Below, in pieces: positions 4,179 to 30,344 of a DNA stretch of 55,055 nucleotides. The notes under the pieces are model-generated. The model did no database searches and was not told where the DNA came from. It saw only the letters and a list, made by a program, of their open reading frames with translations. Positions within the stretch are counted from its first letter, which is position 1. Each line of letters starts with the position of its first letter. The stretch comes from a virus: the UHGV virus genome UHGV-0209657. One strand, given 5' to 3'. The translations under genes were made by a program, and so were the position numbers.

Positions 4179-4469
4179 TTAATGGTAGCGGACTTTATCC
4201 AGGGGTTTTTCCCCTAAATGGCGTGGTTGCGTTGCGTGGTAGTAGCTGCCGCTTTCATTTTCCGTATACCATTTTACTGATCCTTTGCGACGTTCTTTAA
4301 TGCTATTTGGTTTGCATCTTTCCTCGTTTGCAAATCGAATAGCTTTATCCACATTGTCTGTTTTATTGATTGCAGGTGATGATTTTCTTTCGTTTTCTCT
4401 TTTTATTTTTCTGCGTTCCCTGGCATTCAGTTTACTGTCACATTTGCCATACATGATTGTAACGCTCAT
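4179..4469 (-). CDS. basic protein with N-terminal arginine-rich motif, possible N-like antiterminator
   Basis: First gene after candidate leftward promoter; NARERRKIKRENERK resembles an ARM; GGAG RBS before ATG. Confidence 0.3.
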   Translation of the reverse strand: MSVTIMYGKCDSKLNARERRKIKRENERKSSPAINKTDNVDKAIRFANEERCKPNSIKERRKGSVKWYTENESGSYYHATQPRHLGEKPLDKVRYH

Positions 4470-4807
4470 AATCTGATCTCCGTATATCCTTGATGATACT
4501 TAATAAAAAATCATCTTCGTTAATTGCCGCACTTCCAGCGGCTGACCAGATTGTTAATGAGCGGCTTAACATCTTTCAACTAATCCCGCAATCATCGCCG
4601 TTCCCGGCGTGACCTTGCTCACTCCAAGCAAGCTGACTCGTCGCCTTGCGTGCGGTTTCGTGGGGGATGTAACGCTTTAAACACCCCATGCGCCTTGTTA
4701 TCAGTGCCGCTTTCGGTCCCCCATCGGGGAGTTACTCCACGGTTGACAAGGTGTTAAGCCTGATTTTTAAAGTGCCAGGAAGTTGCTTTTGTTACCTGCG
4801 ACCTTCC

Positions 4808-4836
4808 TTTGACTCGCAATATACGCCCCGTAAAAC
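4808..4836 (-). promoter_or_regulatory. candidate leftward early promoter (TTGACT - 17 nt - TATATT)
   Basis: Read on minus strand: -35 at 4831-4836, -10 at 4808-4813, between cI and the leftward operon. Confidence 0.4.
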
Positions 4837-4935
4837 ATCGAGTCAATCCATTTTGTATACTTTTTTAAAATATTTTATATGCTATTGATATTTAAACAAT
4901 AAATAACGTTTTCTGTTTACGTTTTGGCGTTTTCC

Positions 4936-4965
4936 AGGCAAAGAAAAGCCGCCATCCGGCGGCTA
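4936..4965 (-). terminator. rho-independent terminator after cI
   Basis: Hairpin AGCCGCC-atcc-GGCGGCT followed on minus strand by TTTTCTTTG. Confidence 0.5.
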
Positions 4966-4969
4966 ATGT

Positions 4970-5617
4970 TTATGGCAGGTTTACGATCTTCGCATCAACC
5001 ACCACGCCTATAATTTTTGATTCTGGATTCATAGGGATTGGCGGATACAGCGGATTGAGCGAACGTAAAAGCCTTTGACCTCCATCAATAATCAACTGTT
5101 TAAACGTCGGTATCTGCCCTTCCTCAAGCTGGGCTATAACCAGTTTGCCGTCAATAGCTGGCGCGTGCGGGTCAACAAGTATCATCGTCCCCGCCGGGAT
5201 GCTCAACCCCTGCGGCGCGTTCATTGATTCACCTTTGGCAACCAGCCAGTAACTATCATCTGAACAAATAACGCTAGTCGTAACGTGTGGTAATGCTGAT
5301 CGCCTTGTGTCATCCATATTGTTTACTGTGTCCTTCCAGTCAATAACCGGGTAACTACCTAAATCACGCGGCGGTGCGGCCTGAAGTGTATTAGAAACAG
5401 AATCATCAATGACCATACCATCATGTGTAACAGTGAACTGCCGACGACCAAGCGCCCGCATAATCCGCGCAATATCTTCAAGATTTGGCTCGCGGCGACC
5501 GTTCAGCCAGTGTGACAGGCCGCCTTTAGTTATCCCCATGAGATCTGCGAGTGAATCCTGACTCATGCCCTGCGCCCGCATGAGCTGCTTTGCTAAGTCA
5601 TACCATTTTGTTTTCAT
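4970..5617 (-). CDS. cI: CI-like repressor (HTH plus S24 LexA-type autopeptidase domain)
   Basis: N-terminal HTH, C-terminal GESM Ser motif and downstream Lys; divergent from rightward operon. Confidence 0.85.
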   Translation of the reverse strand: MKTKWYDLAKQLMRAQGMSQDSLADLMGITKGGLSHWLNGRREPNLEDIARIMRALGRRQFTVTHDGMVIDDSVSNTLQAAPPRDLGSYPVIDWKDTVNNMDDTRRSALPHVTTSVICSDDSYWLVAKGESMNAPQGLSIPAGTMILVDPHAPAIDGKLVIAQLEEGQIPTFKQLIIDGGQRLLRSLNPLYPPIPMNPESKIIGVVVDAKIVNLP

Positions 5618-5741: not shown

Positions 5742-5922
5742 GAAAAAGATAACTGAAGGCACAAAAAGGCACTTACCTTATGCTCTTTAAAAATCCGGTG
5801 TCGCTGCGAAGCGAAAAACAAATATCACGCAACGGCGGGATCTGTTGAGCGGTCAGTCACTGCTATCTAATGCTAATGGGATGCCCGCCCGCGCGTTCAC
5901 TCTAACCATAGGAGAAAATGCG

Positions 5923-6180
5923 ATGAGTATGAACATGATTAGTAAAGCATGGAACGTAAAACTTAATAGCCCGATTCAAAAACTTGTCTTAATGGCTCTG
6001 GCTGAAAAGGCAGATAACAAAGGACGGGTACATGATGCATCACGCAAAGAAGTAGCCGCAATGTGTGAACTTCCTGTTCATACGGTACATGATGCCTTCG
6101 CCGCGTTAATGGATAAAGGATTTGTTTGTCGTCTTGATGCATTCAGTGATGTCTATGTAGTGATGTTGCCGGAGGGATGA
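5923..6180 (+). CDS. small HTH DNA-binding protein (Cro/CII position)
   Basis: ATG at 5923 with GGAG RBS (listed start 5845 is non-ATG); helix-turn-helix-like segment; first gene of rightward operon. Confidence 0.5.
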   Translation: MSMNMISKAWNVKLNSPIQKLVLMALAEKADNKGRVHDASRKEVAAMCELPVHTVHDAFAALMDKGFVCRLDAFSDVYVVMLPEG

Positions 6181-6183
6181 TCT

Positions 6184-7230
6184 ATGAAGTGGTTTAAGCA
6201 TGACAGCGATGCGAACCGCGATGAAAAACTTCAAAACGTTTTGTTAGATTATGGCCTGGAAGGGTACGGGCTTTATTGGTATTGCCTCGAACTAATAACT
6301 TATGACGTAGATCAGCACAATCTGAATTTTGACCTACGACATGACGCGAGAATCATTGCGCGAAACGTCGGATCTACTGAAAAACGTATAGAAGAAATGA
6401 TGAAATACTTCATCGAAATTGGTTTGTTCGAATGTTCTCAAGGCCACATAACTTGCCTAAAGTTATTAAAAAGGCTGGACCAATCAATGACTTCTAAGAG
6501 CGCTTATAGGGCTGCTATAAACACAGCGAAGGAGCAATTAAAATTAGAGAAGTTAATCAATCCAACACCAAAAGGTCATGATAGGGTCATGACCGGGTCA
6601 GGAAAGGGTCATGAATTAGAAGTAGAAGAAGAAAGAGAAAAAGATATATACACTTCGTGTATTAGCGAAAATGGACAAAAAACGGTCAATCAGGATGGCG
6701 TAAACGAAGCGGCATTGCGTTGCTTGGCCTTCTACAACGACAAAGCTGGATGCAAGTGTCGTGATGCTAAGCCATTTATCGAACTACTGACAGAAACAAA
6801 AACACGTAAGGCATACACGGAGGATGAGATCACATTAGTAATCGAATGGGCTTTGACGCAATGGCGCAGCCGTGGTGGAACACCTAAGCCTATCAACATT
6901 TGCCGGGTAACTAAATTCGATGGGTATCTGGCTGACGCTGAGCAATGGCGCAAGCTATCAGCTACTGTAAACGCTGCCGACGTGGTGGAAGCATTTAACA
7001 GCACGTTTGACGGCCTGTTACCACCTGCCGAACTGGATCGGGATCTTGAACGCAAGATCTATGCGTTCACTGACTACCTGAAAGACAAAAGCATTAACGG
7101 CTTTGTCGCCTACTTCGAAACGTTCAAAAACACGGCTTCAGATTTTTACTTCGGCAATGGCTTCACTGCGACACTTGATTTCCTGCTTAAACCAAAAACG
7201 CTACGTGATACGCGCGCTGGCGCTCTTTGA
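6184..7230 (+). CDS. replication initiation / replisome organiser protein
   Basis: N-terminus MKWFKHDSDANRDEKL...GLEGYGLYWYCLE matches recalled DUF4373 replication N-domain; GGAGGG RBS; upstream of helicase. Confidence 0.7.
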   Translation: MKWFKHDSDANRDEKLQNVLLDYGLEGYGLYWYCLELITYDVDQHNLNFDLRHDARIIARNVGSTEKRIEEMMKYFIEIGLFECSQGHITCLKLLKRLDQSMTSKSAYRAAINTAKEQLKLEKLINPTPKGHDRVMTGSGKGHELEVEEEREKDIYTSCISENGQKTVNQDGVNEAALRCLAFYNDKAGCKCRDAKPFIELLTETKTRKAYTEDEITLVIEWALTQWRSRGGTPKPINICRVTKFDGYLADAEQWRKLSATVNAADVVEAFNSTFDGLLPPAELDRDLERKIYAFTDYLKDKSINGFVAYFETFKNTASDFYFGNGFTATLDFLLKPKTLRDTRAGAL

Positions 7231-7465: not shown

Positions 7466-7618
7466 CCTACCTACCAGTCTGTAAACCGAAAATTAGCCAC
7501 CTGATAGCGTCTCTGGCGCAATAAGACACTGCAACCTGTGCAAACGGGTTACGCGGTGGGATTTTTGCGTTGTAGCGCGTCTGAGGCGTTATATAGAAAA
7601 TTAATAAAGGAGGTATAT

Positions 7619-8674
7619 GTGATTGCTACTTATCATATGAAACTCAATTGTAAGGACACGCAATTACTGTCTGTTAATAATCTGGTTTCTGAACTTGAAA
7701 TTGATAGACTTAAATCATTTGTTAAATACTCTGATCTTTACGGATTTGAGGAATACAAGGATTTTATTGTTGATGGTGATGATGTGTATATCACACCCAT
7801 AACGTTTATTAGATTCGTTACACCTGGTAAATATAGACATTATGAATATAATGAAAAATGGGTTAAGCCAGTTATTGAATCTTGTGGATTAGTTGACTTG
7901 CAAGATATCTTTAATAAATATTCAAATAACACCAAAAAAGATAGTCCTTATGCTTATAATTATATTTTATGGTGTAACAATTATGTTGAAACGAGTGATA
8001 CTCCTGGGCGATGTTCTGTGTATGTGTCAAAAGAAGATGCTGAAAAGTACAAAAAATGGTTGTTCGTCACTCGCGGAGTATCAATAGAAAAGCTATGGGT
8101 AAGGTTGTTCCATTCAAGCGATATTGCAGATCCAGATGCGTTTTTAACTGAACACCTCAATAATGATGAGTTTACCATTGATTTAAATATTGAATATTTT
8201 ATAGTTAAAACAAATTATGGGTATGAAAGATATATTAGCGATAAGATAGCAGAAAAGTATCATGCATGGGGTGAAAATAAAGGTCTTAATAATAATTTTG
8301 AATGCGGGAATTATAACGACATAGAAAACTTTATTGAATTAAAAAGCGATAAAAATGTAATTGAAGAAATAAAAAAGGAGTACGACTCGAAATTATCAGA
8401 AATGAGAGATAATTGTAAAAATATGATTAGGAAGCGTTATGAACATGCTGGCTTAACTATGTATGAAAAACTAAAAGGAGTTAAATTAATAAGGCAATAT
8501 CCTGTTGATGTTGCTGGCAATAAGTATTTTATTGATGGCTACGATCCTGTGAATAACGTTGCTGTAGAAATTGATGAGTCACATCACAAACGGCAAGTAA
8601 AAAGCGATGCGATAAGACAAAAACGCATTGAAGATTATTTGGGGTGCAAGTTTTTCCGTTGTGCTATATCCTAA
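7619..8674 (+). CDS. AT-rich hypothetical protein with C-terminal DUF559/Vsr-like endonuclease-fold domain
   Basis: GTG start 5 nt after AAGGAGG; markedly lower GC than flanks; C-terminus YFIDGYD..VAVEIDESHH..D..R..LGCKFFR matches recalled DUF559 pattern. Confidence 0.5.
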   Translation: MIATYHMKLNCKDTQLLSVNNLVSELEIDRLKSFVKYSDLYGFEEYKDFIVDGDDVYITPITFIRFVTPGKYRHYEYNEKWVKPVIESCGLVDLQDIFNKYSNNTKKDSPYAYNYILWCNNYVETSDTPGRCSVYVSKEDAEKYKKWLFVTRGVSIEKLWVRLFHSSDIADPDAFLTEHLNNDEFTIDLNIEYFIVKTNYGYERYISDKIAEKYHAWGENKGLNNNFECGNYNDIENFIELKSDKNVIEEIKKEYDSKLSEMRDNCKNMIRKRYEHAGLTMYEKLKGVKLIRQYPVDVAGNKYFIDGYDPVNNVAVEIDESHHKRQVKSDAIRQKRIEDYLGCKFFRCAIS

Positions 8675-9988: not shown

Positions 9989-11404
9989 ATGGATTCTGTT
10001 AACTCACTGCGACAAGAACGAGAGTCTGCTGTGATAGGCGGACTCCTGTTAGGCGGGCTTACACCTAACGCGCAAGACGTTCTTGCTACGCTCGATCCTG
10101 AAGTATTCACTATTCCGCTATATAAGCGGGCTTTTGAAATTATCCGGGCGCAAGCCAGAAACAGAAATCTTATCGACGCGTTACTGGTTGGTGATGAGAT
10201 TGGTAATGAAAACTTTGTACCGCTAATGCAAACGGCGCGATCGTGCCCTTCTGCTGCCAACCTGAAGGGATATGCACAGCTACTACGTGAAGAGCACCAG
10301 CGGCGGCAGATGTTGGAACTCATCGACGATATGCGCTACAAACTGGAAACTGGGACACTTGAGGTCGTCAAAGAGACGATGAAAGATTTTGATTCCCGGT
10401 ATTCAAAATTAAAGGTAACAAAAGATCAAATTATCCCGGTGCTGTTGCGCGATGCGGTCCAGGAATACACGGAAGTGCTAAGTAAACGCATGGAGTGTGG
10501 CGTGAACTCTGACAACATCAAAACAGGTATTGACCCACTCGACGAAATGTTAGGCGGCATTAATGCTACTGATCTGGTGCTTATCGCCGGACGCCCAGGG
10601 TCTGGTAAATCGGCGTTGGCGTTGGCAATTGCCCGCGCGGCGGCTGAACGTCCATACCCTGGCGGCGAAGGTCAGCGGGTCGGCGTTTTGCTGTTCACGC
10701 TTGAAATGTCGCTCGATCAGATGACTGAACGTGCTATCGCTGGCGCTGGGAACTTATCAACGGATTGCCTACGTAATCCGGTAAAACTGGATGACGAAGG
10801 TTGGGCGCACGTCACCCAGGGAATGAGTGCCCTTGCCGATCTCGATGTGTGGATTGTTGACGCATCGCAGTTAACGGTCGAGGAAATACGCGCCACCGTC
10901 GAACGGATGAAACAGGACCATCCTAACCTGGGGATGGTAATGATTGACTACATCGGGTTAATGAAGCTGGCTAAGGCCGAACGTCATGATCTCGCCGTAG
11001 GGCAATTGTCGTGGTCATTGAAAATGATGGCGAAAGAGTTGCGCGTGCCAGTGGCGGCGCTGGCGCAATTATCCCGCCGCGTTGAGGAACGACCGAACAA
11101 GCGCCCGAACAATTCTGATCTGCGTGATTCCGGTAATCTTGAGCAGGACGCAGACCGGATCATCATGGTCTACCGCGACGGCTACTACAACGAACAATCG
11201 GTTGCCCGCGAATATATGGAGATCATCGTTTCAAAAAACCGTCACGGGAAAACGGGGACTGTTTACCAGCGGTTTGACGATAACGGCAACATCATCCCAT
11301 GCGACCAGGCCCGCGCGGCGTCCGCTTGCATTCAGTCAATGCAACAACGTCCGGCGGCAAGTAGATTCTCCCCACGAAACAGCCAGAACAACGCATCTTT
11401 TTAA
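9989..11404 (+). CDS. dnaB: DnaB-family replicative DNA helicase
   Basis: Walker A GRPGSGKS and DnaB C-terminal domain layout; 471 aa. Confidence 0.9.
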   Translation: MDSVNSLRQERESAVIGGLLLGGLTPNAQDVLATLDPEVFTIPLYKRAFEIIRAQARNRNLIDALLVGDEIGNENFVPLMQTARSCPSAANLKGYAQLLREEHQRRQMLELIDDMRYKLETGTLEVVKETMKDFDSRYSKLKVTKDQIIPVLLRDAVQEYTEVLSKRMECGVNSDNIKTGIDPLDEMLGGINATDLVLIAGRPGSGKSALALAIARAAAERPYPGGEGQRVGVLLFTLEMSLDQMTERAIAGAGNLSTDCLRNPVKLDDEGWAHVTQGMSALADLDVWIVDASQLTVEEIRATVERMKQDHPNLGMVMIDYIGLMKLAKAERHDLAVGQLSWSLKMMAKELRVPVAALAQLSRRVEERPNKRPNNSDLRDSGNLEQDADRIIMVYRDGYYNEQSVAREYMEIIVSKNRHGKTGTVYQRFDDNGNIIPCDQARAASACIQSMQQRPAASRFSPRNSQNNASF

Positions 11405-12253: not shown

Positions 12254-12451
12254 ATGAATAAGGAGTTAGATTTAACCATTGAAGACTTTAGCACTATTGC
12301 GGAATACATGCGCGGTGACGATCCTGATAAACCTGTTGTGGTTGATATGAGATACTTAAAAAGCGCTTTCATGACAAGCTCACGTCTAATTTCTTTGCAG
12401 GCGATCATGTATGCGCGGGCGCAGTGGAAAAACAGTAACGGTGTATTATGA
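12254..12451 (+). CDS. hypothetical protein (65 aa)
   Basis: ORF in operon string. Confidence 0.3.
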   Translation: MNKELDLTIEDFSTIAEYMRGDDPDKPVVVDMRYLKSAFMTSSRLISLQAIMYARAQWKNSNGVL

Positions 12452-12879
12452 GGCAAATTAGATTTGAAATAGTAAACGACGCCGTAAAAGAAAACGCTAT
12501 CAGGCAGATAAGAGAGATCCAGCCTGATAGCAAAAGCCCGATGATAATTACCATCCAGGAGAAAACCCGCTCGCTAAGCCAAAATAGCTTTCTATGGGCG
12601 TTGCTAACCGACATTAGTGATCAGGTTAATTGGTACGGTAAGAAGCTGTCGCCGGAAGACTGGAAAGCGGTATTCACCGCCGGGCTTAAAAAATATGGCG
12701 TCGTGCCTAATCTGGATAAATCCGGCTTCGTTGTATTGGGAACATCTACAAGTCGAATGAGTAAATCAGAATTCAGTGAACTAATCGAATTAATTTACTC
12801 GTTCGGTGCTGAACATGATGTTCAATGGTCGGGTGATACGAAATTAAACGAGGAATTCATAAAACGCTGGGGGCAATAA
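12448..12879 (+). CDS. ninB: NinB-family recombination protein
   Basis: Size and sequence pattern recalled from lambda NinB/Orf family. Confidence 0.65.
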   Translation: MRQIRFEIVNDAVKENAIRQIREIQPDSKSPMIITIQEKTRSLSQNSFLWALLTDISDQVNWYGKKLSPEDWKAVFTAGLKKYGVVPNLDKSGFVVLGTSTSRMSKSEFSELIELIYSFGAEHDVQWSGDTKLNEEFIKRWGQ

Positions 12880-13069: not shown

Positions 13070-13729
13070 ATGAGTAAATCAAAAGCAATCGGTGTGATTA
13101 GCCATCGCACTAACCCTGAGTGTTACCCATCGTTTGAGGTAACAACATGCCGCACAGAATATAATTTTGGAACATACTATTTATTGGGTGTTCGCGCTGA
13201 CACTGGCGGCACTTATTCTGTTATGGCTGCGGGCTGGAAATTTGATAAATACGCTAATTTATCTAATAAGGATGATGATGGCATGAATAAAGAAAGTGAA
13301 ATCATTGATGAATTAATCGAAGATGAACGCCATGACTGCGAAACACAACCAGAAAAAACGGAATGGGCCGCAGGTGATAAACCTCCTGTTAATGTATGGC
13401 TTGATTGTGTGGGTCTTACGAGCGGAACGGTTCTCGATGTCGTTAAATTTAAATATGTTGGTGATAAATGGGCTATATGTGAAAGCAAGGAAGATTGCGG
13501 TGGCGAGAGGCCGCTATCATGGAAAACATGCTCTTTCAAGCTGTATATAGATCCGCGCAACCAGGCGTTGGGGAGAATAGCTAAATCTCTGGCTATTGTC
13601 GTTATTGGTAAAGATGCGGCAAAAGAGATTGATTTTTATCATGAAAACGAATGGTCGCATGATTATCGCAACATGGCCTGCGAGATCATTGATGGCAATA
13701 TCCCGTTCACTGAATACAAGGGGGAATAA
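13070..13729 (+). CDS. hypothetical protein (219 aa), accessory position next to alpA/int
   Basis: Long ORF, Cys-containing, lower GC than replication genes; no motif recognised. Confidence 0.4.
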   Translation: MSKSKAIGVISHRTNPECYPSFEVTTCRTEYNFGTYYLLGVRADTGGTYSVMAAGWKFDKYANLSNKDDDGMNKESEIIDELIEDERHDCETQPEKTEWAAGDKPPVNVWLDCVGLTSGTVLDVVKFKYVGDKWAICESKEDCGGERPLSWKTCSFKLYIDPRNQALGRIAKSLAIVVIGKDAAKEIDFYHENEWSHDYRNMACEIIDGNIPFTEYKGE

Positions 13730-13959
13730 TGGATAAAACCGGGACAATTCTTCTTAGTCGCCCTGCCATCTGCCGGATGCTGGGAGGAATTAGCAGGGGA
13801 ACGTTTTATTTATGGCGTAAAAAGTGGGAACGGAACGGAACTCCGTTCCCGGCCCCTGTTGATGTACTTGGTACCGGGCGTGGCGTTATGTACCGCTATC
13901 AGGACGTAATGCAGTTCTTTGATCAGATTGGTTTAACGTCAGCCAAAGATAATACATAA
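13729..13959 (+). CDS. AlpA-family phage transcriptional regulator / excisionase-like
   Basis: Small HTH protein (RPAICRMLGGISRGTFYLWRKK); 3' end overlaps integrase. Confidence 0.65.
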   Translation: MDKTGTILLSRPAICRMLGGISRGTFYLWRKKWERNGTPFPAPVDVLGTGRGVMYRYQDVMQFFDQIGLTSAKDNT

Positions 13960-15113
13960 TCCGCAAACTTATTTAGTGCCTCCTTTTGTTCATCAAGATA
14001 ATCATATTTATCGTACACCGCCAGTATCCCCCTTAATGAATGGCCTAAGACCTTTTCTGCAATATGTACCGGAACACCTATAGCTGAAAGGTGTGTCCGG
14101 CACGTCCTGCGGAGGTCGTGACAGGACCATGATTTACCGCCCATCCTTTTACGCACGAATATTGCAGCTACTTTTATCACTGATGCGTTTACTGGCCTGT
14201 TGCCGCCGTTAATCACTGGCGGGAATACATAATCATACTCATGGGAGGTTAAAACCTCCCTGAGCATTTTTATCGACAAGTCAGATAATCCCCGCCTGAT
14301 TTCACTTCTTGTCTTCGCCACCGCCGCCGGAACGGTCCACACACCGTTGTCCAGGTCTAGGTGTTCCCTTCTCATTTTCTGCAATTCACCAACCCTGCAC
14401 CCGGTTAGCAATAATAGCTTTAAGGCTATTTTGTTCTGCGGATAGATCTGCGAACTGTCTACCGTGCGCCAGAAGTGGCCTATCTCCTCACATGAAAGGT
14501 AACGCTCCCCCACCGCATAATGCTCGCCAACGTCAGCTACACGGATATTGTTTATCGCCGTGTTAGTCATTAGCCCGCGCCTGATTGCGCTGTTAACGAT
14601 GATTTTCATTCGCTTCAATATCAAACCAGCCGTAACCGCGTGACCCGCCGCAGTGATCTCGCCAAATATATCCATCCACTGTTTTGTCGTTACGTCGTCA
14701 GCTATGTAGTCGCCGTACTTGTTGACAACATGGCGCATCAATGCGCTTTTGACTTCTTTATATGCCACCAGCTTAATGATGTTCGGCAGGGATAGATAGT
14801 CTTCCACTACGTCTGTTATCGATCTCTTGCCCTGTTCAAAGGCTATGGCCTGCTTTACGCACAGTGCCGGATTCTTCCCTTTCGCAAGCAACTCCCTGTA
14901 TTCAGCCACCGCATAGCGGGCGTCTTTCAGACTCATTTTCCCGTACTCGCCGATCTTCATTCGCACTGGCTTGCCGTTGAATCTGTAACGGTACTGGAAA
15001 GTAATTTTCCCTTTTGGACTTATCCTGGCTGACAGACCGTCACGATCAGCTATCTCGCTTGGGCCGTCATATGGCTTGTTGGCAATAGTCCTTAACCTGG
15101 TATCCGTAAGCAT
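13923..15113 (-). CDS. int: tyrosine integrase (P4-type)
   Basis: N-terminal arm-binding-like domain, C-terminal HDLRRT box and catalytic Tyr region; ATG with GGGGGTG RBS. Confidence 0.9.
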   Translation of the reverse strand: MLTDTRLRTIANKPYDGPSEIADRDGLSARISPKGKITFQYRYRFNGKPVRMKIGEYGKMSLKDARYAVAEYRELLAKGKNPALCVKQAIAFEQGKRSITDVVEDYLSLPNIIKLVAYKEVKSALMRHVVNKYGDYIADDVTTKQWMDIFGEITAAGHAVTAGLILKRMKIIVNSAIRRGLMTNTAINNIRVADVGEHYAVGERYLSCEEIGHFWRTVDSSQIYPQNKIALKLLLLTGCRVGELQKMRREHLDLDNGVWTVPAAVAKTRSEIRRGLSDLSIKMLREVLTSHEYDYVFPPVINGGNRPVNASVIKVAAIFVRKRMGGKSWSCHDLRRTCRTHLSAIGVPVHIAEKVLGHSLRGILAVYDKYDYLDEQKEALNKFADYVLSLADVKPI

Positions 15114-15126
15114 GTTGCACCCCCAA

Positions 15127-15390
15127 TTTTGGTCACGTTTTGGTACACAGTTTTTGTTGTACGGATATTAACAGTATTGTACGGAATTAGAAACGCGATG
15201 CTGGGTTTTGGTTACAACAGGATGATTTTTAAGTAATTTTAGTGGAGAGATTGAACGGAGTTAAACACCTTTAAACATAGTGCGCTGGTCCTGTCTGGAA
15301 TGATTAGTGTAACGAATAATCATTTATAAAACATAATGTTATGTTGTTTTTGATTTTAGTTTTTGATATTTGGTCACTATTTGGTACACA
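15127..15390. other. candidate attP / integrase arm-site region
   Basis: 22-bp imperfect direct repeats TTTGGTCAC..TTTGGTACACA at 15127-15149 and 15369-15390; TTGTACGGA repeated twice; next to int. Confidence 0.35.
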
Positions 15391-15418
15391 AAAAGAAACG
15401 AGGCGTTAGCCTCGTTTC
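15385..15418 (-). terminator. terminator at end of late operon
   Basis: 10-bp stem GAAACGAGGC/GCCTCGTTTC with T-run on minus strand. Confidence 0.55.
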
Positions 15419-15461
15419 TCGGCGATGCTTTCAACATCACCATGCTATCACTGCCGCATCA

Positions 15462-15728
15462 TTAAGCCCATGCGCGGACGCCTGGATCTGGAACGATGAA
15501 AGGCTCAAGCTGAGAAATATCAACATCGTCACCAGTTATACGCACGTTGACGTAATAACCTTTTTTCCCAATAAGTACAGGTGTCTCGCTTTCTGGATCG
15601 TCGAATACAAGGACAAAACCGATATCATCAATAAACACGGTTGACCAATTGGCATCCAGCCAGCCGCTATTAATCACAATGTCGTTGTATTGCTGTTTGT
15701 CAGTAAATTGCAAGCTAACGTCTTTCAT
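15462..15728 (-). CDS. hypothetical protein downstream of tail fibre
   Basis: ATG at 15726-15728 with AAGGTGG RBS; last gene of late operon. Confidence 0.35.
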   Translation of the reverse strand: MKDVSLQFTDKQQYNDIVINSGWLDANWSTVFIDDIGFVLVFDDPESETPVLIGKKGYYVNVRITGDDVDISQLEPFIVPDPGVRAWA

Positions 15729-15738
15729 GTTAACCACC

Positions 15739-17535
15739 TTAAACAATTTCGCTTAATTGCGCATCAGTTAATGCCTTATGCCATACTCGAAAATTTCTAA
15801 CATGACCAAATAAATGACGTTGTCCTGTCGTTGTCTGACCACCGATACGAATAGTTGCGGAGCTTTGAATATAAGTCCAGGTTGTTTTTGTTTCGCTGCT
15901 TAACTTACCGTTACTGACTACACATGTGGACCGTTCGGACTTTACCCGCATACCAATAAGCATTTTTTCCAGCCCGGCATTTTCATTTATTCGTCGGTTT
16001 GAACCACCTATATCACAATACGGAAAACCGTCGTACCCACCTGATGAACCAAACCCCATTACGATCGCCGCTCCGGTTTGATGACCGCCGGTATCAAAAA
16101 CACGCGGCGCTGCATTTGGCGTTTTATACCAGTTCTTATGTACCTCACAAAGAACCGTAAAAGGAAGATTATAAAGGTTATTCTTGATTGGGACTGTCAC
16201 CATATCGCTTGCCCGCGTTGCTGGTGCCGACCCCGTAACAATAAAAGATGATGCGCCTGCACCAGCCTCAATCTGTGGAGTGGTTACATCGAGACAATCC
16301 CCTGATGCCACCATCTGACCTGTATCCGGAGAATACTGGACGAAACCACCAACCGTATTTTCTGTTGTATCTGCTTTTAATGTAGCCTCAAAAAATATCC
16401 AGCCAGTTGCATCATCCTTAACAGACCTTGCTGTAACACGGCTTGTCTGACCTGTCTTGCTAATTATGCGGGTGGTAAGGTTCAGGTTTGCTGCTCCTAT
16501 TGATGTCCTTACCTCCCCATCATAATGTTCAAATAAAATACGAACGGCGATATTATCAACTTCACTTTTTACCCGACAGGATATAGTTACATGCTTTTCG
16601 TCCCCTGAAGTATCAACCCCTCCGGCACTCGAATACAGTCCGATAATGGTATGCGCTTTACTTGTACCAACAATCGAATCCTGTACGACAAACCGGCCAT
16701 AATTAAACCCAAAACTATCTGTGCCTGTTTCTGTAACGTCCAGTGAAGTTGACTTATTCCACTTCGAAGGGTCTGTACTGTTTATTAACAGGTTTGTGCG
16801 CGTCCCCTCAATCAGTAATCCTTCGCGTTCAAAACGTGGCTCATTAATACCAGCCACAGTTAAAACACCTGATTTGTTAATGTAAGTAGCAGTGCTTGCG
16901 CGTGAGAAAGAAACAACTTTATCTGATGATATTGTTTTTTCTTCCCCATTAATGGTTACTTTTTTAGTACCAGGGCCGTAGCCCGTGATCATATCGAGAG
17001 AATCGTTAAACGGTATCCATACGTCCGGCAGCGGTTGCAAAACATACGCGTAAGGCTGTGCGGTCTGATTGGCGTATTCGTGGGCTTCGTCTCTGTATGT
17101 CTTAGCTGAATCGGCTGCGCTTGTCGCTGTTGTTGCAGCGTTGGTTGCAGTGGTAGCTGATTGTGATGCTAATTTTGAGGCTGAAATCACATCTTTGTTG
17201 TCGCTAAAAAATTCAACTGCGTCCGCTATTTCTGATTCTTTGCCCTGATAGTAACGCAGTGTTTCGGCGACATCCTGAGCAAGACCATCCACAGAGATCG
17301 AATCTGAAAGCAGGATGCTAAATTTAGTTCCAGCCGGAATAGCCGGACTTGCCGCAGGAGTTACCGACAAACTTGTTGCGCTTTTTACCTTTGTGATTGA
17401 AAAAATCTGCACCGGATCGCTAATGGCAATAAGAGTGCAACCCACTCTGATCAGAGATAATGCGGCGTTGAATTCAGTCCCTGCCCCGGTAACTGTGTTT
17501 CCGCTAACAGCTATAGTGCCTGTTGTGTAAATCAT
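15739..17535 (-). CDS. side tail fibre protein
   Basis: 598 aa, Ala/Thr/Ser-rich N-terminal shaft-like region, position after J. Confidence 0.55.
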   Translation of the reverse strand: MIYTTGTIAVSGNTVTGAGTEFNAALSLIRVGCTLIAISDPVQIFSITKVKSATSLSVTPAASPAIPAGTKFSILLSDSISVDGLAQDVAETLRYYQGKESEIADAVEFFSDNKDVISASKLASQSATTATNAATTATSAADSAKTYRDEAHEYANQTAQPYAYVLQPLPDVWIPFNDSLDMITGYGPGTKKVTINGEEKTISSDKVVSFSRASTATYINKSGVLTVAGINEPRFEREGLLIEGTRTNLLINSTDPSKWNKSTSLDVTETGTDSFGFNYGRFVVQDSIVGTSKAHTIIGLYSSAGGVDTSGDEKHVTISCRVKSEVDNIAVRILFEHYDGEVRTSIGAANLNLTTRIISKTGQTSRVTARSVKDDATGWIFFEATLKADTTENTVGGFVQYSPDTGQMVASGDCLDVTTPQIEAGAGASSFIVTGSAPATRASDMVTVPIKNNLYNLPFTVLCEVHKNWYKTPNAAPRVFDTGGHQTGAAIVMGFGSSGGYDGFPYCDIGGSNRRINENAGLEKMLIGMRVKSERSTCVVSNGKLSSETKTTWTYIQSSATIRIGGQTTTGQRHLFGHVRNFRVWHKALTDAQLSEIV

Positions 17536-17732
17536 CGCAATAACTCCGTTTTGTTAATTAACTAAACAATTCTACCATTTTGTGATCTGTGTTACACTTT
17601 GGGCTTATACATAATGTATTTTTTGATCTATATCAACATACGAAATGATAGCTTCTGCGGTGATTTGCTCATCGGATGGGTGGATCATCACGAACAACAA
17701 ATGACAGTAAAACAAACAGTAAGGTGAATACA

Positions 17733-17978
17733 ATGAAAAAACTAATTGTTGCTTGCATCTTATCAGCTCTGTCTTTTGGTGCTTTTGCTTCTGTAAATTC
17801 GACAGATAAGAGTGATGCTGGCACTGCTCAATATGGTGATACTGGCCTTGATAACCAACGTTCGAGTTATTTCAATACTGACTCATGGAAAGAAAAACAA
17901 CTACAAGGTAAAATTATTGACAGTGAATGTAATTTACCTATCCATTTTTCTGGTGTAAATGATGGGTGTAAAAAATAA
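17733..17978 (+). CDS. small secreted protein with signal peptide (opposite-strand moron)
   Basis: MKKLIVACILSALSFGAFA signal peptide; AAGGTGA RBS; between J and tail fibre on opposite strand. Confidence 0.5.
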   Translation: MKKLIVACILSALSFGAFASVNSTDKSDAGTAQYGDTGLDNQRSSYFNTDSWKEKQLQGKIIDSECNLPIHFSGVNDGCKK

Positions 17979-17989
17979 AAACAATGCAT

Positions 17990-18020
17990 AAAAAAAACGG
18001 GGCTTATGCCCCGTTTTTTA
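17990..18020. terminator. bidirectional hairpin terminator
   Basis: ACGGGGC-ttat-GCCCCGT flanked by A-run and T-run. Confidence 0.6.
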
Positions 18021-21000
18021 TGCTGTCGTTGATGTTCTAAATGATCCGGTGCCTCTTGCTACTATCATTGTTGGAGAATACAACGCGGTACAATATGCGT
18101 ATCCTTCAGATGATGATGTTTGAGGACAATATATTTTCCCGATAATATCTGATGCTTTTAAACCAGAAAAAGCGCATTGCACTGTTAATGTGCATCCACC
18201 ATAAGGCACGTAATATGAAATTGTTTTGTTTTTATCTCCGCAACTAAACGTTACGTTATAAGTGGATCTATATTCACCAGACATTAATGAAATAGTCGCC
18301 ATAAGCATAACTGATTTCGTCAATGCATTATCCGTGCTGTCTTTATATGTGATGGTTGCGCTATAACTTCCGTTATGCCCAAGCACTCGATCTGGACCAA
18401 CCCCCATGTTAGCAACGTCACCGACAAATGATTTTGCCTCTACTGTACCTTTAAACTTCCCGCTTGTGGCCTGAATCTCACCAGTGAATTTACCAGATGT
18501 TGCGTACACCGTACCGCGTACAGTGACGTTGTTGAACTCCGCATTGCCGTTTTTATTTAGCATCCAGCCAGCCGAACCAGCTTTATAGTTGGTTGACTGA
18601 ATTTGCTGCGCAATCTTCGCGGTAGTGATTGATGCGTCTCTGATCCACGCATCACGGATGTAGCAAGCACCGTTAGTAACATAGAACGGGGTCTGATAGG
18701 AGCCACCTGCCGCAGTCATAAGCACGAAACGGTCAACGAGGAAAATACACTGCGATTGAACGTTAGTCCCGCTACCAGTAAGGCCGAGCGACATTCCTGT
18801 AGCGTATTTCATACCGTTTTTATCAGTGGCAATCTTAATTGAATATGACGCATCAACGTTACCTTTGAAGTCAGTCAGTGCTTTTGATGTCGTTTCTATC
18901 GCCGTTGTGTTTCCGTTAATAGTTACTTTCAACTGGTCGATTCTGGTTGACAATGCCTCGTCTGCCGTTGCCATAGCCTGTGACCATTCCGTGATGCTTG
19001 AGTTTACATCGTCGAAAGATGCCGAGATCTGGCCAAATTTTTCCGCGCTTGATGTTTCATGCGTAGAAAGTGCAGTTGACACTTCGGATACTTTCGAATT
19101 AATCGTACTGGTAAGCGATGAGTTAAGGCTGCTGATTGCGTCAGTGCGTGCATTCTTCTCATCTGCGATCGCTTTATCCATCCTGGTTACGTTGCTTGTC
19201 ACCTTGCTATCGAGCGTGGAAATTGACGCATTAACCCCGCTAATAGCTTCTGCGCGTGCGCTCGCCTCATCTGCGATTGCTTTATCAAGACGGGAAACGC
19301 TCGCGTCGGTTTTGCTTTCAAGACTACTGACGCTGGCGTTAACGTTGCTAATAGCTTCTGCGCGTGCGCTCGCCTCATCTGCGATTGCTGTGTCTACCCT
19401 TGCTATTTCCGCTTTTGTTTTTGTTTGTCCTTTCCTGTATTTCGCCTCAATAACAGTGCTCATCTTGCTTTGCGCCATTGAGTTATTAATAAGCGCCAGA
19501 GATGCGTTTTGCAGACTTGCTTTCGCCTGTTCTATCTCGTCGCTGTTTTTATCAACCTCACTTTTAACGCCGCCAAGCGTCGCGCTGATACCTGATATCG
19601 CCTGAGCACGTGCGCTTGATTCATCAGCGATAGCTTGATCAAGACGGCTAACACTGGCATTTGTGTTATTTTCAAGCGTTGTTAAATCAGCTTTAACCAC
19701 TGTTATTGCGTCGCTTCTTGCCTGCGTTTCATCTGATATTGCATTATCGAGGCGCTTAACGCTGGCGTCAGTTTTCTTGTCAAGTGTTGAGATACTTGCG
19801 TTCACGTCGCTGATAGCCTGAGTACGCGCACTTGTTTCGTCTGCAATTGCCTGATCAAGACGGTTTACGCTGGCGTCAGTTTTCTTGTCAAGATTGCTTA
19901 TTGAGGCATTTACACCGTTAATAGCTTCAGCGCGGGCGCTGGCCTCGTCAGCTACTGCGCGTTGCACATTAGAGATCTGACCTTTAAGGTTTGTGTCCAT
20001 CACATTCATTTCTGCCGTGATGGTTTCCAGTGATTCCGCTGTCGCTTTTTTCTCTTCAGCGATAACGTTGTCAATGCGGTCAATTTCCGCTTTCGTCTCT
20101 GTCCTGCCTTTCTTGTACTGAGCGGTAAGAGTTACGCGAGTGTTAGTCTGTGCAAGCGAGTTATTAATAAGAGCAAGTGAGGCGTTTTGCAGACTTGCTT
20201 TTGCTTGCGCCAGTTCGCTGCCAACTTTTTCGCTAGACACCTCCAGCGAGTCGATTCTCGACTCATGCTGTCCAATATCATCGGCGTTTTCCTTAACTTT
20301 TTTATAAAGATCTTCCGTTTCTTTTTTGAGCGTATCAGTATCAGCTTTTATTGATCCTGTTTCTATGGTTAGGTTGTCAGTTTCAGTCCTTAAATCGTCA
20401 GTTATGTTGGTCAGATTATCAGTTGCAGTTTTGAGGTTGTCAGTAGCAGTTTTAAGGTCATTCGTAGCGCTTTCGATAAGATCAGTGCGGTCGCCTAGAT
20501 CTTTAATGTCACCAACCATTTCTTTAAATTGTTTGGAATTCATTACGTCTTTGGTGACGTAATCGGTAATTTCATCAAAGTTTTCTGTTGGCTTACCTGA
20601 CGCTTCCACAAAGTCAGACACACCAAAAGCGTTACGCGCGCGCACATAAACGTAATATGTGTGACCTGTATTCATGCCGCCAAACGTCCACTGATGACCA
20701 CGCCCGGTATATTGTGCTTTAGTGGTTATTGATGCCGGATCAGTGATCTGCGTTTCACCTGAGTAATAAAACTCGTAACTGGTATCAGTGGTGAGCGTTG
20801 TTCTGCTGATCGGGTAAACTGTAGCCTGGAATACACCGGGAACCCAATTAACGCCAACTGGGGCCGCTGGTGCGCCAATAACCAGATCGACAATGCTTTC
20901 CGCACCCTTCATGCCCGTGTCATTTCTGCCACGAATGCCTAATGAGTAGTTGCCAGCATCAATGCCATAAAAATCATAACTGTAATTCGTGGTTTCGTAG

Positions 21001-22988
21001 CTTTTAACTACAGCGCCTTCGGCGTTATACACGCGAATCTCAAAGGTCAGGCGACGCGTTGTCGTCTGTGTTTCCCATGTTGCGCGACATTGAACCGTTT
21101 CAGATCCAACGTTTAACACCTTCAGATTTTCAATGTTCGGCACGCGGAAGTGATTAAGCGTGTCGTTATTGATCTCGAAGATTGCGCCATTATCGACTAC
21201 GGCCTGCTTATGTGGATCATGCTGTGCGGCCTCGATGGTGTATACGCTGTTATTTTCTGTTTCTGCTACACTGGTGATTCGACATAAAACGGGTTTTGCT
21301 GCGTTGGTTGATACAGCAAAAACAGTGCCGTTACGAATCCACGCCGGGGCGGCTGCAAGGGTGATAATGTTCCCGTTAACTCCGATGATCTGGTGTTTTT
21401 TAAATTTACCATCGCTATCAAGTAAGCTGATGGTGTCGCCAGCCGCGATATATTCAGAATCAACCTTGTCGACCGTGATCGCTCTGCCATTGTTCGCCAC
21501 GATGCGACCGCCTAAACGAGCGCCTGCGCGATTATTATCGAGGATCTCGATTATATCCCCCGGCGTAAAGTGAATGGCGTCACGGGCCATTTTAAATGTG
21601 AATTTTGACGGCTCGCGTTTCGCTGTTTCGATCAGCCATTTACCAGCGCGGTGCGCTTGCCCGCGTGAAGTGCAACCGAACGCCTCCAACGTGGTTTCGT
21701 TATAACCATCACGGGCGATTAGTTTATCATCTGCGACATATTCTTTTGATTGCTCCCAGCCGTTTTCAGGGTCAGTCCAGGATACGATCACGGCGTTGTA
21801 GCATTCTGCGCGTGCGATACTTGAACGAGTAAACGCGCCATCAACGACGTTTGCATTTGTGATGGTGGCGATTGGATCTTGTGGCGCATCAATCATCACG
21901 GTAAGACGTTGTCCGTCCCATAACGCGATACCACGGAACATACCTGCGATGTTATCCAGTAGGTCGCGGGCGCTCATTTGCTCCGTAATGTAAGCGTTAA
22001 GCGTCATGCGAGGTTCAAGGCCACCATAGCCATCATCAACCAACTGATCGCAGTATTGAGAAAGCACGTACAAAGCGCCATCATCAACATCAATGTAACC
22101 AGCATGTCGAGCAAGTCCAAAGCGCTCGTTTTTAACCAGATACCGGAAAAGCCATGCAGGGTTATTGGTATACGCCTTTTTAAATCCACCAAGCCATAAA
22201 CCTGAATATGTGCGCGTTTCAGGGTTGTAATTGTCAGGCACATCAACAATCAGGCCGCGAAGGTGATAGGTGCGGGTAGGCGTATCAGTATACTGATCAT
22301 GGTCAATTACGGCGCCAGCTACAGCGGTATGAGGATAAGACAGATTATCATCTATTATTTCGCTGTAACTACTCCACCGCGTATCATTCCGCAATAGATC
22401 GCCGTTGCTGTCTGGTGTTATGCGACGAACGCGAATATCAAACGGTTTTTCATCCGGCGCTTTAATGATGTGAGCTTCCAGGTATTCACCGCTTTGTTTA
22501 CCAGGGCCAATGTGTATGTCTTTAATCAGCGACCACGTAGAAGATGATGACGGTTTAACATCAACCATCAACATGACGGATGTATTATATTGATTGCCCT
22601 TTTCATCTGACTGAACGAGAGCATCAACACCAAGATTCAACCTGACGCGGGTAACGTTTGGATCTGAAACAGTCCTGATTATTGGTGTGTCGTGAGTTAC
22701 CTTTGCGTTGACAATAACGGTTGACTCAATGGCGTTAAAACCATTAATCGGCGATTGGTCAGCCGTGCCGTTGCGCCAGGCTATACTAATCCCCGGAATT
22801 GATGTATTCCCGTTTGCGTCAGTAACAGGAGTGTCATTAAGCATCACGTCATTCAATGGCGCTTTCTGGTTTACCGGACCGTATATCGGCCCTTCGCTGA
22901 GAATATCTAAAACACGATAAAACTGTTTGTGATACAGGTTATCGTTCAATAATGTTGGTGTTTTGGCTTTGCCGCCGCCGCTACTCAT
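18018..22988 (-). CDS. J: host specificity protein J-like tail tip protein with expanded coiled-coil repeat region
   Basis: N-terminus GGKAKTPTLLNDNL..ILSEGPIYGP matches recalled lambda J; 1656 aa; central repeats. Confidence 0.85.
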   Translation of the reverse strand: MSSGGGKAKTPTLLNDNLYHKQFYRVLDILSEGPIYGPVNQKAPLNDVMLNDTPVTDANGNTSIPGISIAWRNGTADQSPINGFNAIESTVIVNAKVTHDTPIIRTVSDPNVTRVRLNLGVDALVQSDEKGNQYNTSVMLMVDVKPSSSSTWSLIKDIHIGPGKQSGEYLEAHIIKAPDEKPFDIRVRRITPDSNGDLLRNDTRWSSYSEIIDDNLSYPHTAVAGAVIDHDQYTDTPTRTYHLRGLIVDVPDNYNPETRTYSGLWLGGFKKAYTNNPAWLFRYLVKNERFGLARHAGYIDVDDGALYVLSQYCDQLVDDGYGGLEPRMTLNAYITEQMSARDLLDNIAGMFRGIALWDGQRLTVMIDAPQDPIATITNANVVDGAFTRSSIARAECYNAVIVSWTDPENGWEQSKEYVADDKLIARDGYNETTLEAFGCTSRGQAHRAGKWLIETAKREPSKFTFKMARDAIHFTPGDIIEILDNNRAGARLGGRIVANNGRAITVDKVDSEYIAAGDTISLLDSDGKFKKHQIIGVNGNIITLAAAPAWIRNGTVFAVSTNAAKPVLCRITSVAETENNSVYTIEAAQHDPHKQAVVDNGAIFEINNDTLNHFRVPNIENLKVLNVGSETVQCRATWETQTTTRRLTFEIRVYNAEGAVVKSYETTNYSYDFYGIDAGNYSLGIRGRNDTGMKGAESIVDLVIGAPAAPVGVNWVPGVFQATVYPISRTTLTTDTSYEFYYSGETQITDPASITTKAQYTGRGHQWTFGGMNTGHTYYVYVRARNAFGVSDFVEASGKPTENFDEITDYVTKDVMNSKQFKEMVGDIKDLGDRTDLIESATNDLKTATDNLKTATDNLTNITDDLRTETDNLTIETGSIKADTDTLKKETEDLYKKVKENADDIGQHESRIDSLEVSSEKVGSELAQAKASLQNASLALINNSLAQTNTRVTLTAQYKKGRTETKAEIDRIDNVIAEEKKATAESLETITAEMNVMDTNLKGQISNVQRAVADEASARAEAINGVNASISNLDKKTDASVNRLDQAIADETSARTQAISDVNASISTLDKKTDASVKRLDNAISDETQARSDAITVVKADLTTLENNTNASVSRLDQAIADESSARAQAISGISATLGGVKSEVDKNSDEIEQAKASLQNASLALINNSMAQSKMSTVIEAKYRKGQTKTKAEIARVDTAIADEASARAEAISNVNASVSSLESKTDASVSRLDKAIADEASARAEAISGVNASISTLDSKVTSNVTRMDKAIADEKNARTDAISSLNSSLTSTINSKVSEVSTALSTHETSSAEKFGQISASFDDVNSSITEWSQAMATADEALSTRIDQLKVTINGNTTAIETTSKALTDFKGNVDASYSIKIATDKNGMKYATGMSLGLTGSGTNVQSQCIFLVDRFVLMTAAGGSYQTPFYVTNGACYIRDAWIRDASITTAKIAQQIQSTNYKAGSAGWMLNKNGNAEFNNVTVRGTVYATSGKFTGEIQATSGKFKGTVEAKSFVGDVANMGVGPDRVLGHNGSYSATITYKDSTDNALTKSVMLMATISLMSGEYRSTYNVTFSCGDKNKTISYYVPYGGCTLTVQCAFSGLKASDIIGKIYCPQTSSSEGYAYCTALYSPTMIVARGTGSFRTSTTA
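19000..20560 (-). repeat. intragenic tandem repeats within J
   Basis: Near-identical DNA blocks (19240-19295 vs 19350-19400; 19480-19530 vs 20160-20210) encoding about 33-aa repeats ASVxRLDxAIADExSAR; boundaries approximate. Confidence 0.5.
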
Positions 22989-25559: not shown

Positions 25560-25568
25560 GGCGGCAAC

Positions 25569-30335: not shown

Positions 30336-30344
30336 GGGTGAAAC

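Follow-up and report, generated by a model that had tools for sequence, protein, structure and literature searches.

Why a phage integrase gene should lie where a replication operon and a late operon run into each other, and whether such an arrangement indicates a complete genome or a mosaic of modules, is the question raised by positions 13729-15420 of the window, the whole 55,055-bp stretch of DNA that was analysed. The answer that we favour, at a probability of roughly 80%, is that a temperate siphophage of the mEpimmI (mEp021-like) group has its cassette for site-specific recombination here, a reading that includes the proposals made below for its excisionase (RDF) and for the regulation of int. 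The mEpimmI group, its layout and its ydaM/dgcM target have already been published; the feature is therefore a known one and its description is correct. Members of the group are the phages mEp021, mEp515, mEp554, mEp010, mEp013 and mEp044 as well as E. coli prophages such as M1/5, and four integrase types are distinguished among them, with M1/5 placed in type Ia (PMC11893012).

The integrase and its attachment site

The integrase gene and the attachment site next to it comprise the following elements:

13923-15113, − strand: P4-like heterobivalent tyrosine integrase of mEpimmI type Ia, 396 aa
15128-15390: whole attP, ~263 bp, made up of arm pair, core and arm pair
15128-15149, + strand: int-proximal tandem arm-type pair, TTTGGTCACgt TTTGGTACACA, 15-36 bp ahead of the int ATG
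15157-15185, + strand: two copies of TTGTACGGA with 20 bp spacing, the only copies in the window
15288-15299: attP core (crossover region), GTCCTGTCTGGA, 12 bp, unique in the window
15369-15390, + strand: distal tandem arm-type pair, TTTGGTCACta TTTGGTACACA, 70-91 bp past the core

The first-pass annotation had called the enzyme a P4-type integrase, and this is confirmed both by its domain make-up, with an N-terminal Arm-DNA-bind_3 domain (PF13356, DUF4102; E 2.4e-20) and a C-terminal Phage_integrase domain (PF00589; E 1e-20), and by its full-length similarity to P4 Int (23% identity, E 4e-15). By alignment only, residues R240, H332, R335, H358 and Y367 correspond to the catalytic R..H-x-x-R..H..Y positions of P4 Int. 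The protein also matches the phrog_1 integrase (E 4e-68), and the int region and its counterpart in the M1/5 prophage have 99.6% DNA identity. A scan of IMG/VR with Int returned close relatives (contigs of 9-55 kb, most of them ~52-55 kb) and one match at 31% identity, with no new contexts.

The same annotation had proposed to look for att duplications and for the attB core, and it had placed attP near the repeats at 15127-15390, correctly: the core lies between the two arm repeats and represents the only 12 bp common to both junctions of the M1/5 prophage, a ~55.2-kb element of E. coli that is bounded on both sides by the identical core within the 5' end of dgcM/ydaM. As read from these aligned junctions, the 12-bp core is shown to recombine with its exact copy within codons 14-17 of dgcM/ydaM in E. 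coli. An intact copy of attB, as rebuilt from the host flanks of M1/5, is present inside dgcM in 5367 of the 5426 E. coli genomes. Integration of mEp021 at ydaM has been confirmed by PCR (PMC11893012), and ydaM/dgcM is the target of integrase types Ia and Ib. The target is thus a protein-coding gene; integration into a tRNA gene was ruled out, as dgcM encodes a protein and no tRNA gene was found within the window. Lysogeny truncates dgcM, a curli and biofilm regulator gene, and leaves int and the helix-turn-helix gene that overlaps it at one end of the prophage, with the tail-fibre genes and their terminator at the other.

The core is flanked by a 22-nt direct repeat, TTTGGTCACnnTTTGGTACACA, that is present in exactly two copies in the 55 kb, at 15128-15149 and 15369-15390, while none of 100 shuffles gave a match. 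The TTTGGTMAC repeats within it form tandem arm-type sites arranged as in P4, whose annotated arm repeats (NC_001609) are equally placed. The distance from the int ATG to the core is 174 bp with arm sites inside it, and a Shine-Dalgarno-like GGGGG is found between the proximal arm pair and the ATG. The proximal pair is kept in types Ia and Ib, and in type II as well despite an unrelated core region; the distal pair is 100% conserved in type II phages. In parallel, the best-conserved part of Int across the types is its N-terminal arm-binding domain. The two TTGTACGGA copies, whose ACGGA cores are shared by types Ia and Ib, are candidate accessory sites that may bind the RDF or another factor.

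The 76-aa protein and the control of recombination

The gene that converges on int and the transcription signals around the two genes are located as follows:

13729-13959, + strand: 76-aa winged-helix protein, probable RDF (excisionase-like), final gene of the early replication operon
13923-13959: 37 bp shared by the 3' ends of the converging RDF-like gene and int
13850-13826, − strand: hairpin and T run, possible int terminator, 11 pairs, ~75 nt past the int stop and within the RDF codons (KKW..GTPFP)
15264-15236, − strand: candidate int promoter, sigma-70-like TTAACT-17-TAAAAT, 9/12 consensus, between the core and the arm sites
15420-15393, − strand: rho-independent terminator at the end of the late (tail fibre) operon, 12-pair stem with 6 G-C, T run

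The overlap of a small helix-turn-helix gene with the 3' end of int, in convergent orientation, had been recognised from the start and stands as described (13729-13959 on the + strand and 13923-15113 on the − strand). At its other end, the ATG of the gene overlaps the stop codon of the preceding ORF (TAATG), so that the two are translationally coupled. Its product is probably the excisionase (RDF), as suggested by structure modelling. In particular, a single-sequence prediction (pLDDT 79) gives a winged helix of the MerR/Xis type, and the closest structural neighbours are excisionases and RDFs, with weak Foldseek E-values. The initial label "AlpA-like" is thus appropriate for the predicted fold but not for the family, as Pfam AlpA (PF05930) does not match the window protein and reaches only E 0.2 with the type II homologue. 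Among other families, Pfam HTH_17 remained at E 0.11 (13.2 bits, cut-off 27), NCBIfam gave nothing significant (Xis_Gifsy_1, E 0.047, was far under the cut-off) and a sequence search of the PDB returned spurious matches only.

It is rather improbable that the protein instead regulates transcription, whether as a repressor or, on the pattern of CP4-57, as an AlpA-type activator of int, with excision left to another factor or to none. The generic HTH_23 is the sole Pfam match above threshold, NCBIfam is silent and the PHROG label is only "DNA binding protein", all of which would suit a regulator, and P4 Vis and KplE1 TorI are each both regulator and RDF (PMC2951348). The two roles are compatible, however, and besides the structural neighbours named above no other Xis-like ORF adjoins attP. 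Moreover, the protein co-diverges with Int, which supports the RDF assignment at the level of sequence: identity to types Ib, II and III is 92, 51 and 58% for the RDF and 90, 51 and 48% for Int, while the neighbouring NinB is 96-98% identical. An RDF-like gene also adjoins and overlaps int in all six of the six lineages compared, with an overlap of 61 nt in type Ib, 43 in type II, 61 in type III, 55 in phage Oslo and 25 in phage Pm34.

In other records the gene is annotated only as "helix-turn-helix"; it is unannotated in LSU61 and appears as a short call of 183 nt in M1/5 and STEC308.

Being convergent, int and the gene of the probable RDF have no common promoter, and the region upstream of int lies inside the attachment site, as in modules of the KplE1/P4 type. 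By analogy with these, int is probably controlled by its own autoregulated promoter in attP. Transcription of int would start from a weak promoter in the int-proximal arm, and Int would repress int by occupying the arm sites that separate this promoter from the ATG, after the example of KplE1 IntS and P4 Int. The RDF, in turn, would be made only when the N-antiterminated early operon is transcribed to its end, that is, upon induction or during lytic growth. A nutL site has been described in the operon that ends with the helix-turn-helix gene (PMC11893012), which supports this reading; the failure of UV to induce mEpimmI lysogens, reported in the same paper, speaks against it. With the expression of int and RDF uncoupled in this way, the direction of recombination would be set by the supply of RDF. 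In addition, early transcription should continue antisense across int, since the RDF gene has no terminator downstream; a search 3' of 13959 found no convincing terminator on the + strand. Both the autoregulation and the antisense effects are proposed on the strength of analogy.

Several candidate signals were not retained. The match at 15264-15236 stays with int in the prophage, but it was rejected as a firm int promoter, being weak and absent from type Ib, and the count of such sites in the region is not above chance. The hairpin at 13850-13826 was dropped as a conserved int terminator inside the RDF gene: its counterpart has 10 pairs in MagusPhagus and 5 in mEp021, is degraded in PAR and KKa019 and is absent from LSU61. 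A promoter-like site on the + strand within the RDF/int overlap, a candidate antisense promoter, is present in the window, mEp021 and MagusPhagus but absent from the type III prophage LSU61, and such sites are no more numerous than expected by chance; it survives as no more than an idea.

That int has no promoter of its own, and is served on the circular genome by a Q-modified polymerase reading from the late operon through the terminator at 15420-15393, is very unlikely. In the prophage, int would then be silent or transcribed from host DNA. In favour of this reading, int lies directly downstream of the late operon and in the same direction, and its sole promoter-like match is weak and not conserved; yet Int is required early in lysogenisation, ahead of late transcription, and excision requires Int from a prophage in which int is separated from the late operon. 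The position of arm sites between the core and the ATG is moreover P4-like, and the int genes of P4 and KplE1, similarly placed at the attachment site, use their own autoregulated promoters (PMC2951348).

A further step can be put forward, although we consider it unlikely to be correct: a full-length antisense int RNA reaching into attP could act as a built-in switch of directionality and timing that replaces the PI/sib logic of lambda. During RDF synthesis, such a switch would keep int silent and the arm sites clear. The idea derives from the overlap, kept at 25-61 nt across six lineages whose Int proteins are 43-90% identical, together with the lack of a terminator after the RDF gene. It would be a mechanism without prior description for an RDF-int-attP cassette, and a literature search on convergent, overlapping int/xis genes yielded nothing relevant.

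Genome order and group membership

On the side of attP that faces away from int, the late operon ends with two genes:

15739-17535, − strand: tail fibre gene
15462-15746, − strand: tail fibre gene, end of the late operon

As the first-pass annotation had stated, this operon runs from Q to the tail fibre in the same direction as int and is terminated just before the attP repeats by the hairpin at 15420-15393, which is also found in mEp021 and MagusPhagus. It includes on the − strand a Q-like gene (49958-50680), endolysin, Rz, TerS, TerL, portal, capsid, tape measure and J (18018-22988), and is interrupted by ORFs of the + strand at 17676-17978, 25110-25817 and 29676-30665. The replication genes do read toward int, since the O-like (5845-6180), Lin1244-type (6184-7230) and DnaB (9989-11404) genes are all on the + strand. 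NinB (12448-12879) is on this strand too, so that the assignment of erf, ssb, nin-type genes and Q to the late strand is right for Erf, SSB, NinG and Q but not for NinB. The − strand further carries the cI-like repressor, the N-like protein, methyltransferases and RusA. In particular, a CI-like repressor (phrog_4) is encoded at 4970-5617 and an N-like antiterminator (phrog_271, the counterpart of Gp17) at 4179-4469, and both stretches can be aligned to genes labelled "cI repressor" in mEpimmI phages.

The departure from lambda order is therefore real: int and the RDF gene occupy opposite strands, NinG, RusA and Q share the strand of N and erf, and the window does not follow the lambdoid order of int-xis at the PL end and nin/Q after replication. 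Simple inversion of a lambda-like ancestor, reasoned through on paper, fails to give the observed strands of int and RDF.

This order is not peculiar to the window, in contrast to the initial impression of an unusual architecture, as mEp021, mEp554, mEp010, MagusPhagus and the M1/5 prophage are annotated with the same order and orientation. The window is 86-90% identical in nucleotides to mEp021 and its relatives across 42-90% of each window half, with order and strands the same, and the passage from its end to its start is covered by a single unbroken alignment to mEp515. Since the ends are continuous in relatives, the window is a complete, circularly permuted genome, one of the two possibilities originally raised. 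The other, in the form of a chimera, of two adjacent elements (one with replication genes and int, one with late genes) or of an assembly artefact, could be suspected from the non-lambda order and from an integrase module that varies among otherwise similar phages, but it is almost certainly wrong, as the order recurs in six phage isolates, in MagusPhagus and in a large number of prophages, 48 mEpimmI genomes have been published with a "conserved genome organization" and "high synteny" (PMC11893012, Front Microbiol 2025), the junction is continuous in mEp515, the M1/5 prophage is bounded by the core on both sides and no host DNA was found in the window. Mosaicism is thus refuted for the window as a recent event and holds only narrowly, in that the cassette has four sequence types in the group and recurs in Oslo and Pm34. 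The 55,055-bp genome is itself distinct from published members, with variable small genes of its own, such as 54818-392; an Rfam search of the whole window gave no match.

Beyond correct annotation, the importance of these results is small. The text of PMC11893012 contains neither "attP" nor "excisionase", and arm sites and the gene overlap are also not named there. What is added to published work is a base-level map of attP, an argued RDF assignment, the observation that integrase types differ in the core and the core-binding domain but keep the arm sites and the arm-binding domain of Int, and the recognition of the cassette as common to Oslo and Pm34. These may be of use in predicting prophage boundaries and in engineering mEpimmI gut coliphages.

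Comparison with known recombination modules

Within the mEpimmI group, the window shares gene order, strands and the overlap of int with the helix-turn-helix gene with the other members, and the type Ia integrase with M1/5; no architectural difference is seen. P4 likewise has an Arm-DNA-bind_3 integrase read away from attP and a small winged-helix RDF of the AlpA/Vis type. The spacing is alike: one tandem pair precedes the ATG by 15-40 bp, the core precedes it by ~150-185 bp and a second pair lies 55-90 bp past the core. However, vis is read in the direction of int from a position 4.8 kb away, across attP, and P4 integrates into a tRNA gene whereas the target of the window phage is a protein-coding gene.

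The IntS-TorI modules of KplE1, HK620 and Sf6 also have int and RDF without a joint promoter, and there the int promoter overlaps the attachment site. The model put forward for them is negative autoregulation by Int and RDF (PMC2951348, Panis et al. 2010). In Sf6, attP separates two genes of like orientation, torI and int, while in the window the RDF gene is downstream of int, convergent and overlapping.

As in lambda, attP of the window lies where N-antiterminated early and late operons converge, and the RDF gene is distal in an N-dependent early operon. In lambda, a joint transcript from PL carries int and xis in the direction of attP, with the nin genes and Q located after those for replication; in the window, int is inverted, the RDF gene belongs to the replication operon, and the recombination genes are followed on the N/cI strand by NinG, RusA and Q.

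Outside the group, a similar cassette is found in Salmonella phage vB_SosS_Oslo and Proteus phage vB_PvuS_Pm34, whose RDF and Int are homologous to those of the window (41-44% identity for RDF, 46% and 43% for Int) and are encoded by genes that converge with a 3' overlap, whose int is co-directional with tail-fibre genes and in which tandem arm pairs of the GTACAC type flank the core. Their RDF gene, like lambda xis, ends a recombination (erf, or exo-recT) early operon, whereas that of the window ends the replication operon, and their backbones are otherwise unrelated to the window at the DNA level. Collectively, the cassette, consisting of an RDF gene converging on int followed by attP, is common to mEpimmI, Oslo and Pm34, and within mEpimmI it exists in four sequence types.

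Genome organization and group membership

Over most of its length, the window shares 86-90% identity with mEp515, mEp554, mEp021, mEp010, mEp044, mEp013 and MagusPhagus, which belong to the mEpimmI group (Front Microbiol 2025; PMC11893012). Its last 600 and first 600 bases, once joined, align to mEp515 in one unbroken block. Thus, the window is a complete, circularly permuted genome without host flanks, one of the two readings that the first-pass annotation had offered. A stretch of about 630 bp of small genes (54818-55055 plus 1-392), which aligns to mEp515, has no megablast match to the prophage of E. coli M1/5, where a different segment of equal size (622 bp) occupies the equivalent spot.

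The features around the integrase gene and at the limits of the late genes are as follows.

13729-13959, + strand: 76-aa ORF, helix-turn-helix (HTH) protein, candidate recombination directionality factor (RDF)
13923-15113, - strand: 396-aa ORF, integrase (Int)
15420-15393, - strand: hairpin of 12 pairs plus T run, end of the late-gene run
15462-15746, - strand: small ORF, last of the late run
15739-17535, - strand: tail fibre, late gene
18018-22988, - strand: J, late gene
49958-50680, - strand: Q-like antiterminator, first in the late-gene order

The ORF listing bears out the convergent overlap of the small HTH gene with the 3' end of the P4-type int, the two having 37 bp in common. The late genes (Q-like, endolysin, Rz, small and large terminase, portal, capsid protein, tape measure, J, tail fibre and the small ORF) do run with int on the - strand and end at a terminator, represented by the hairpin. 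The + strand carries the O-like initiator, a Lin1244-type protein, DnaB, NinB and the 76-aa gene, while the - strand encodes a cI-like repressor, an N-like protein, Erf and SSB (2984-5617), followed past the window ends by methyltransferases, NinG, RusA and Q. The placement of nin-type genes on the late strand is thus correct for NinG and incorrect for NinB, which lies on the replication strand. Such a layout had been read as unusual or mosaic. Across 48 mEpimmI genomes, a "conserved genome organization" and "high synteny" have been described, with four integrase types, three mapped target genes (ydaM, abgT, mppA), a type IV site that was unmappable, and PCR-confirmed integration of mEp021 at ydaM (PMC11893012). 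The annotated mEp021, mEp554, mEp010 and MagusPhagus records also place the HTH/int overlap between replication and tail-fibre genes. Membership in this published group, which has exactly this layout, together with a shared P4-like cassette, explains the apparent oddity.

Other loci deserve mention. Two DNA methyltransferase genes (52452-53240 and 54034-54585, -; phrog_757 and phrog_111) precede NinG, RusA and Q in the N/recombination operon. Within the replication operon, a 378-aa ORF of low GC (7538-8674, +; 35-40% vs about 46%) weakly matches a DUF559/PvuRts1I-like endonuclease at its C-terminus; the corresponding position in mEp021 is occupied by an HNH endonuclease, which suggests a variable slot for selfish nucleases. 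Between J and the tail fibre, an ORF on the opposite strand (17676-17978, +), for which no PHROG match was found, has an internal Met opening a signal-peptide-like segment, MKKLIVACILSALSFGAFA, and might represent a moron, either a lipoprotein or a superinfection-exclusion gene, like those studied in the mEpimmI paper. Two + strand ORF pairs within the - strand tail-gene block (25110-25817 and 29676-30665), assigned to PHROG families of unknown function (phrog_38567, 5689, 1848), also look like morons. The tail fibre gene shows a receptor-binding-domain exchange: its C-terminal two thirds (15758-17079) share 80-89% identity with tail fibre genes (lateral or side) from virulent coliphages and Salmonella phages unrelated to this one (ev243, KurtStettler, T5-like phages).

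Integrase, attachment site and dgcM

The 396-aa protein contains Arm-DNA-bind_3 (E 2.4e-20) and Phage_integrase (E 1e-20) domains and can be aligned to P4 Int over its whole length (23% identity, E 4e-15), with R240, H332, R335, H358 and Y367 located in the catalytic motifs. Its attachment site comprises the following elements.

15128-15149 and 15369-15390: 22-nt repeat units TTTGGTCACnnTTTGGTACACA, each a tandem half-site pair with 11 bp spacing
15288-15299: attP core GTCCTGTCTGGA, 12 bp, single occurrence in the window

The int region matches 36 chromosomes among complete E. coli genomes, the best being M1/5 (99.6% identity), where the match ends at window position 15299 and then enters dgcM; the tail-fibre end of the prophage lies 55.2 kb away, adjoining ynaN/zntB. 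One M1/5 junction corresponds to window 15001-15299 and the other to 15288-15700, both at 100%, and the core is the sequence common to them, located between the repeats in which attP had been anticipated. As for attB, the site rebuilt by joining both M1/5 host flanks is intact inside dgcM in 5367/5426 complete E. coli genomes, intact meaning that at least 80% of it is covered in one place (21 of the 5388 matching genomes fail).

The core spans dgcM codons 14-17. In M1/5, a TAG lies in frame just upstream on the phage side and no in-frame start for dgcM is provided from that side, so that the gene loses its promoter and first 13 or more codons. Truncation of E. coli dgcM/ydaM, a diguanylate cyclase and curli regulator, occurs after codon 13-17 (15288-15299; M1/5 sequence L003, 7580-7640; L004, 6775-6786); PGAP nonetheless annotates a shortened DgcM in M1/5.

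Beyond these two copies, the 22-nt repeat matches nowhere else in the 55 kb, and 100 shuffles yielded no match. The repeats are kept in type Ib phages and present in type II, where the distal pair is 100% identical and the intervening sequence, including the core, is unrelated; variants of the motif are found in type III and in phages Oslo and Pm34. In parallel, the arm-binding N-terminal domain is the most conserved part of Int (87/68/63% identity to types Ib/II/III) and the core-binding domain the least (80/35/42%), a pattern that fits constant arm sites and a changing core. The annotated attP spacing of P4 is reproduced: the first arm pair lies 15-36 bp upstream of the int ATG (16-39 in P4), the core 175-186 bp upstream (152-171), and the second arm pair 70-91 bp beyond the core (54-77).

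The small HTH protein and its convergence on int

The 76-aa protein had been called AlpA-like. Its HTH nature is upheld by Pfam HTH_23, the only model reached, with HTH_17, AlpA and the NCBIfam Xis models all below threshold, so that it is not assignable to the AlpA family by sequence. Its identity to types Ib/II/III (92/51/58%) follows that of Int (90/51/48%), while NinB, encoded 850 bp away, remains at 96-98%; this co-variation provides independent support for an RDF role, and we infer that the protein is most likely the RDF. Through a TAATG overlap between its start codon and the stop codon of the preceding gene, the HTH gene is tied to the + strand operon. Annotation of its homologues is uneven: wholly absent in E. 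coli O157:H7 LSU61 (L016, 3376-3606), with a late start in M1/5 (L003, 6070-6252) and STEC308 (L012, 671-853), giving 183 nt instead of 231, and in mEp554 limited at this position to a 129-nt "hypothetical protein".

The convergent 3' overlap is found in every lineage examined, measuring 37 nt in type Ia, 61 nt in type Ib, 43 nt in type II, 61 nt in type III (where PGAP missed the RDF gene), 55 nt in Salmonella phage Oslo and 25 nt in Proteus phage Pm34. Both Oslo and Pm34 have the RDF homologue at the end of a recombination early operon (erf, or exo-recT), with int running in the direction of the tail-fibre genes, as in the window. The cassette, an RDF gene converging on int followed by attP, is therefore a mobile module of several siphophage backbones. 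The only mEpimmI-specific point is that the replication operon is the early operon reaching it, because the N/cI strand is the one that carries the recombination genes, NinG, RusA and Q. Oslo (L028, 5370-5870) and Pm34 (L029, 5376-5810) also share a near-identical stretch, TATACGCAAGATCACAT(A/G)CAAA, between the arm-site pairs, probably a common att core and hence one host target despite their differing hosts.

Likely regulation of the cassette

In mEpimmI phages, nutL has been placed within the replication-side operon, and two further sites, nutR1 and nutR2, on the N-to-Q side (PMC11893012), which makes the RDF gene distal in an N-dependent operon, a position like that of xis in lambda. Since no convincing + strand terminator was found after the RDF gene, early transcription should continue past it, antisense through int. 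Two candidate elements, an antisense promoter in the overlap and a hairpin within the RDF gene that could terminate int transcription, were set aside, as neither is conserved in all types. What remains as a novel possibility is that the two genes are regulated through their convergent, overlapping transcription.

The region upstream of int lies within attP, and the RDF gene and int have no possible shared promoter. This arrangement corresponds to the "unusual organization" of KplE1, HK620, Sf6 and P4, in which the int promoter overlaps the attachment site and both Int and the RDF repress int (PMC2951348). In the window, the sole promoter-like match upstream of int (15264-15236) is weak, and an arm pair lies between it and the ATG, making it plausible that int would be repressed by its own product bound there.
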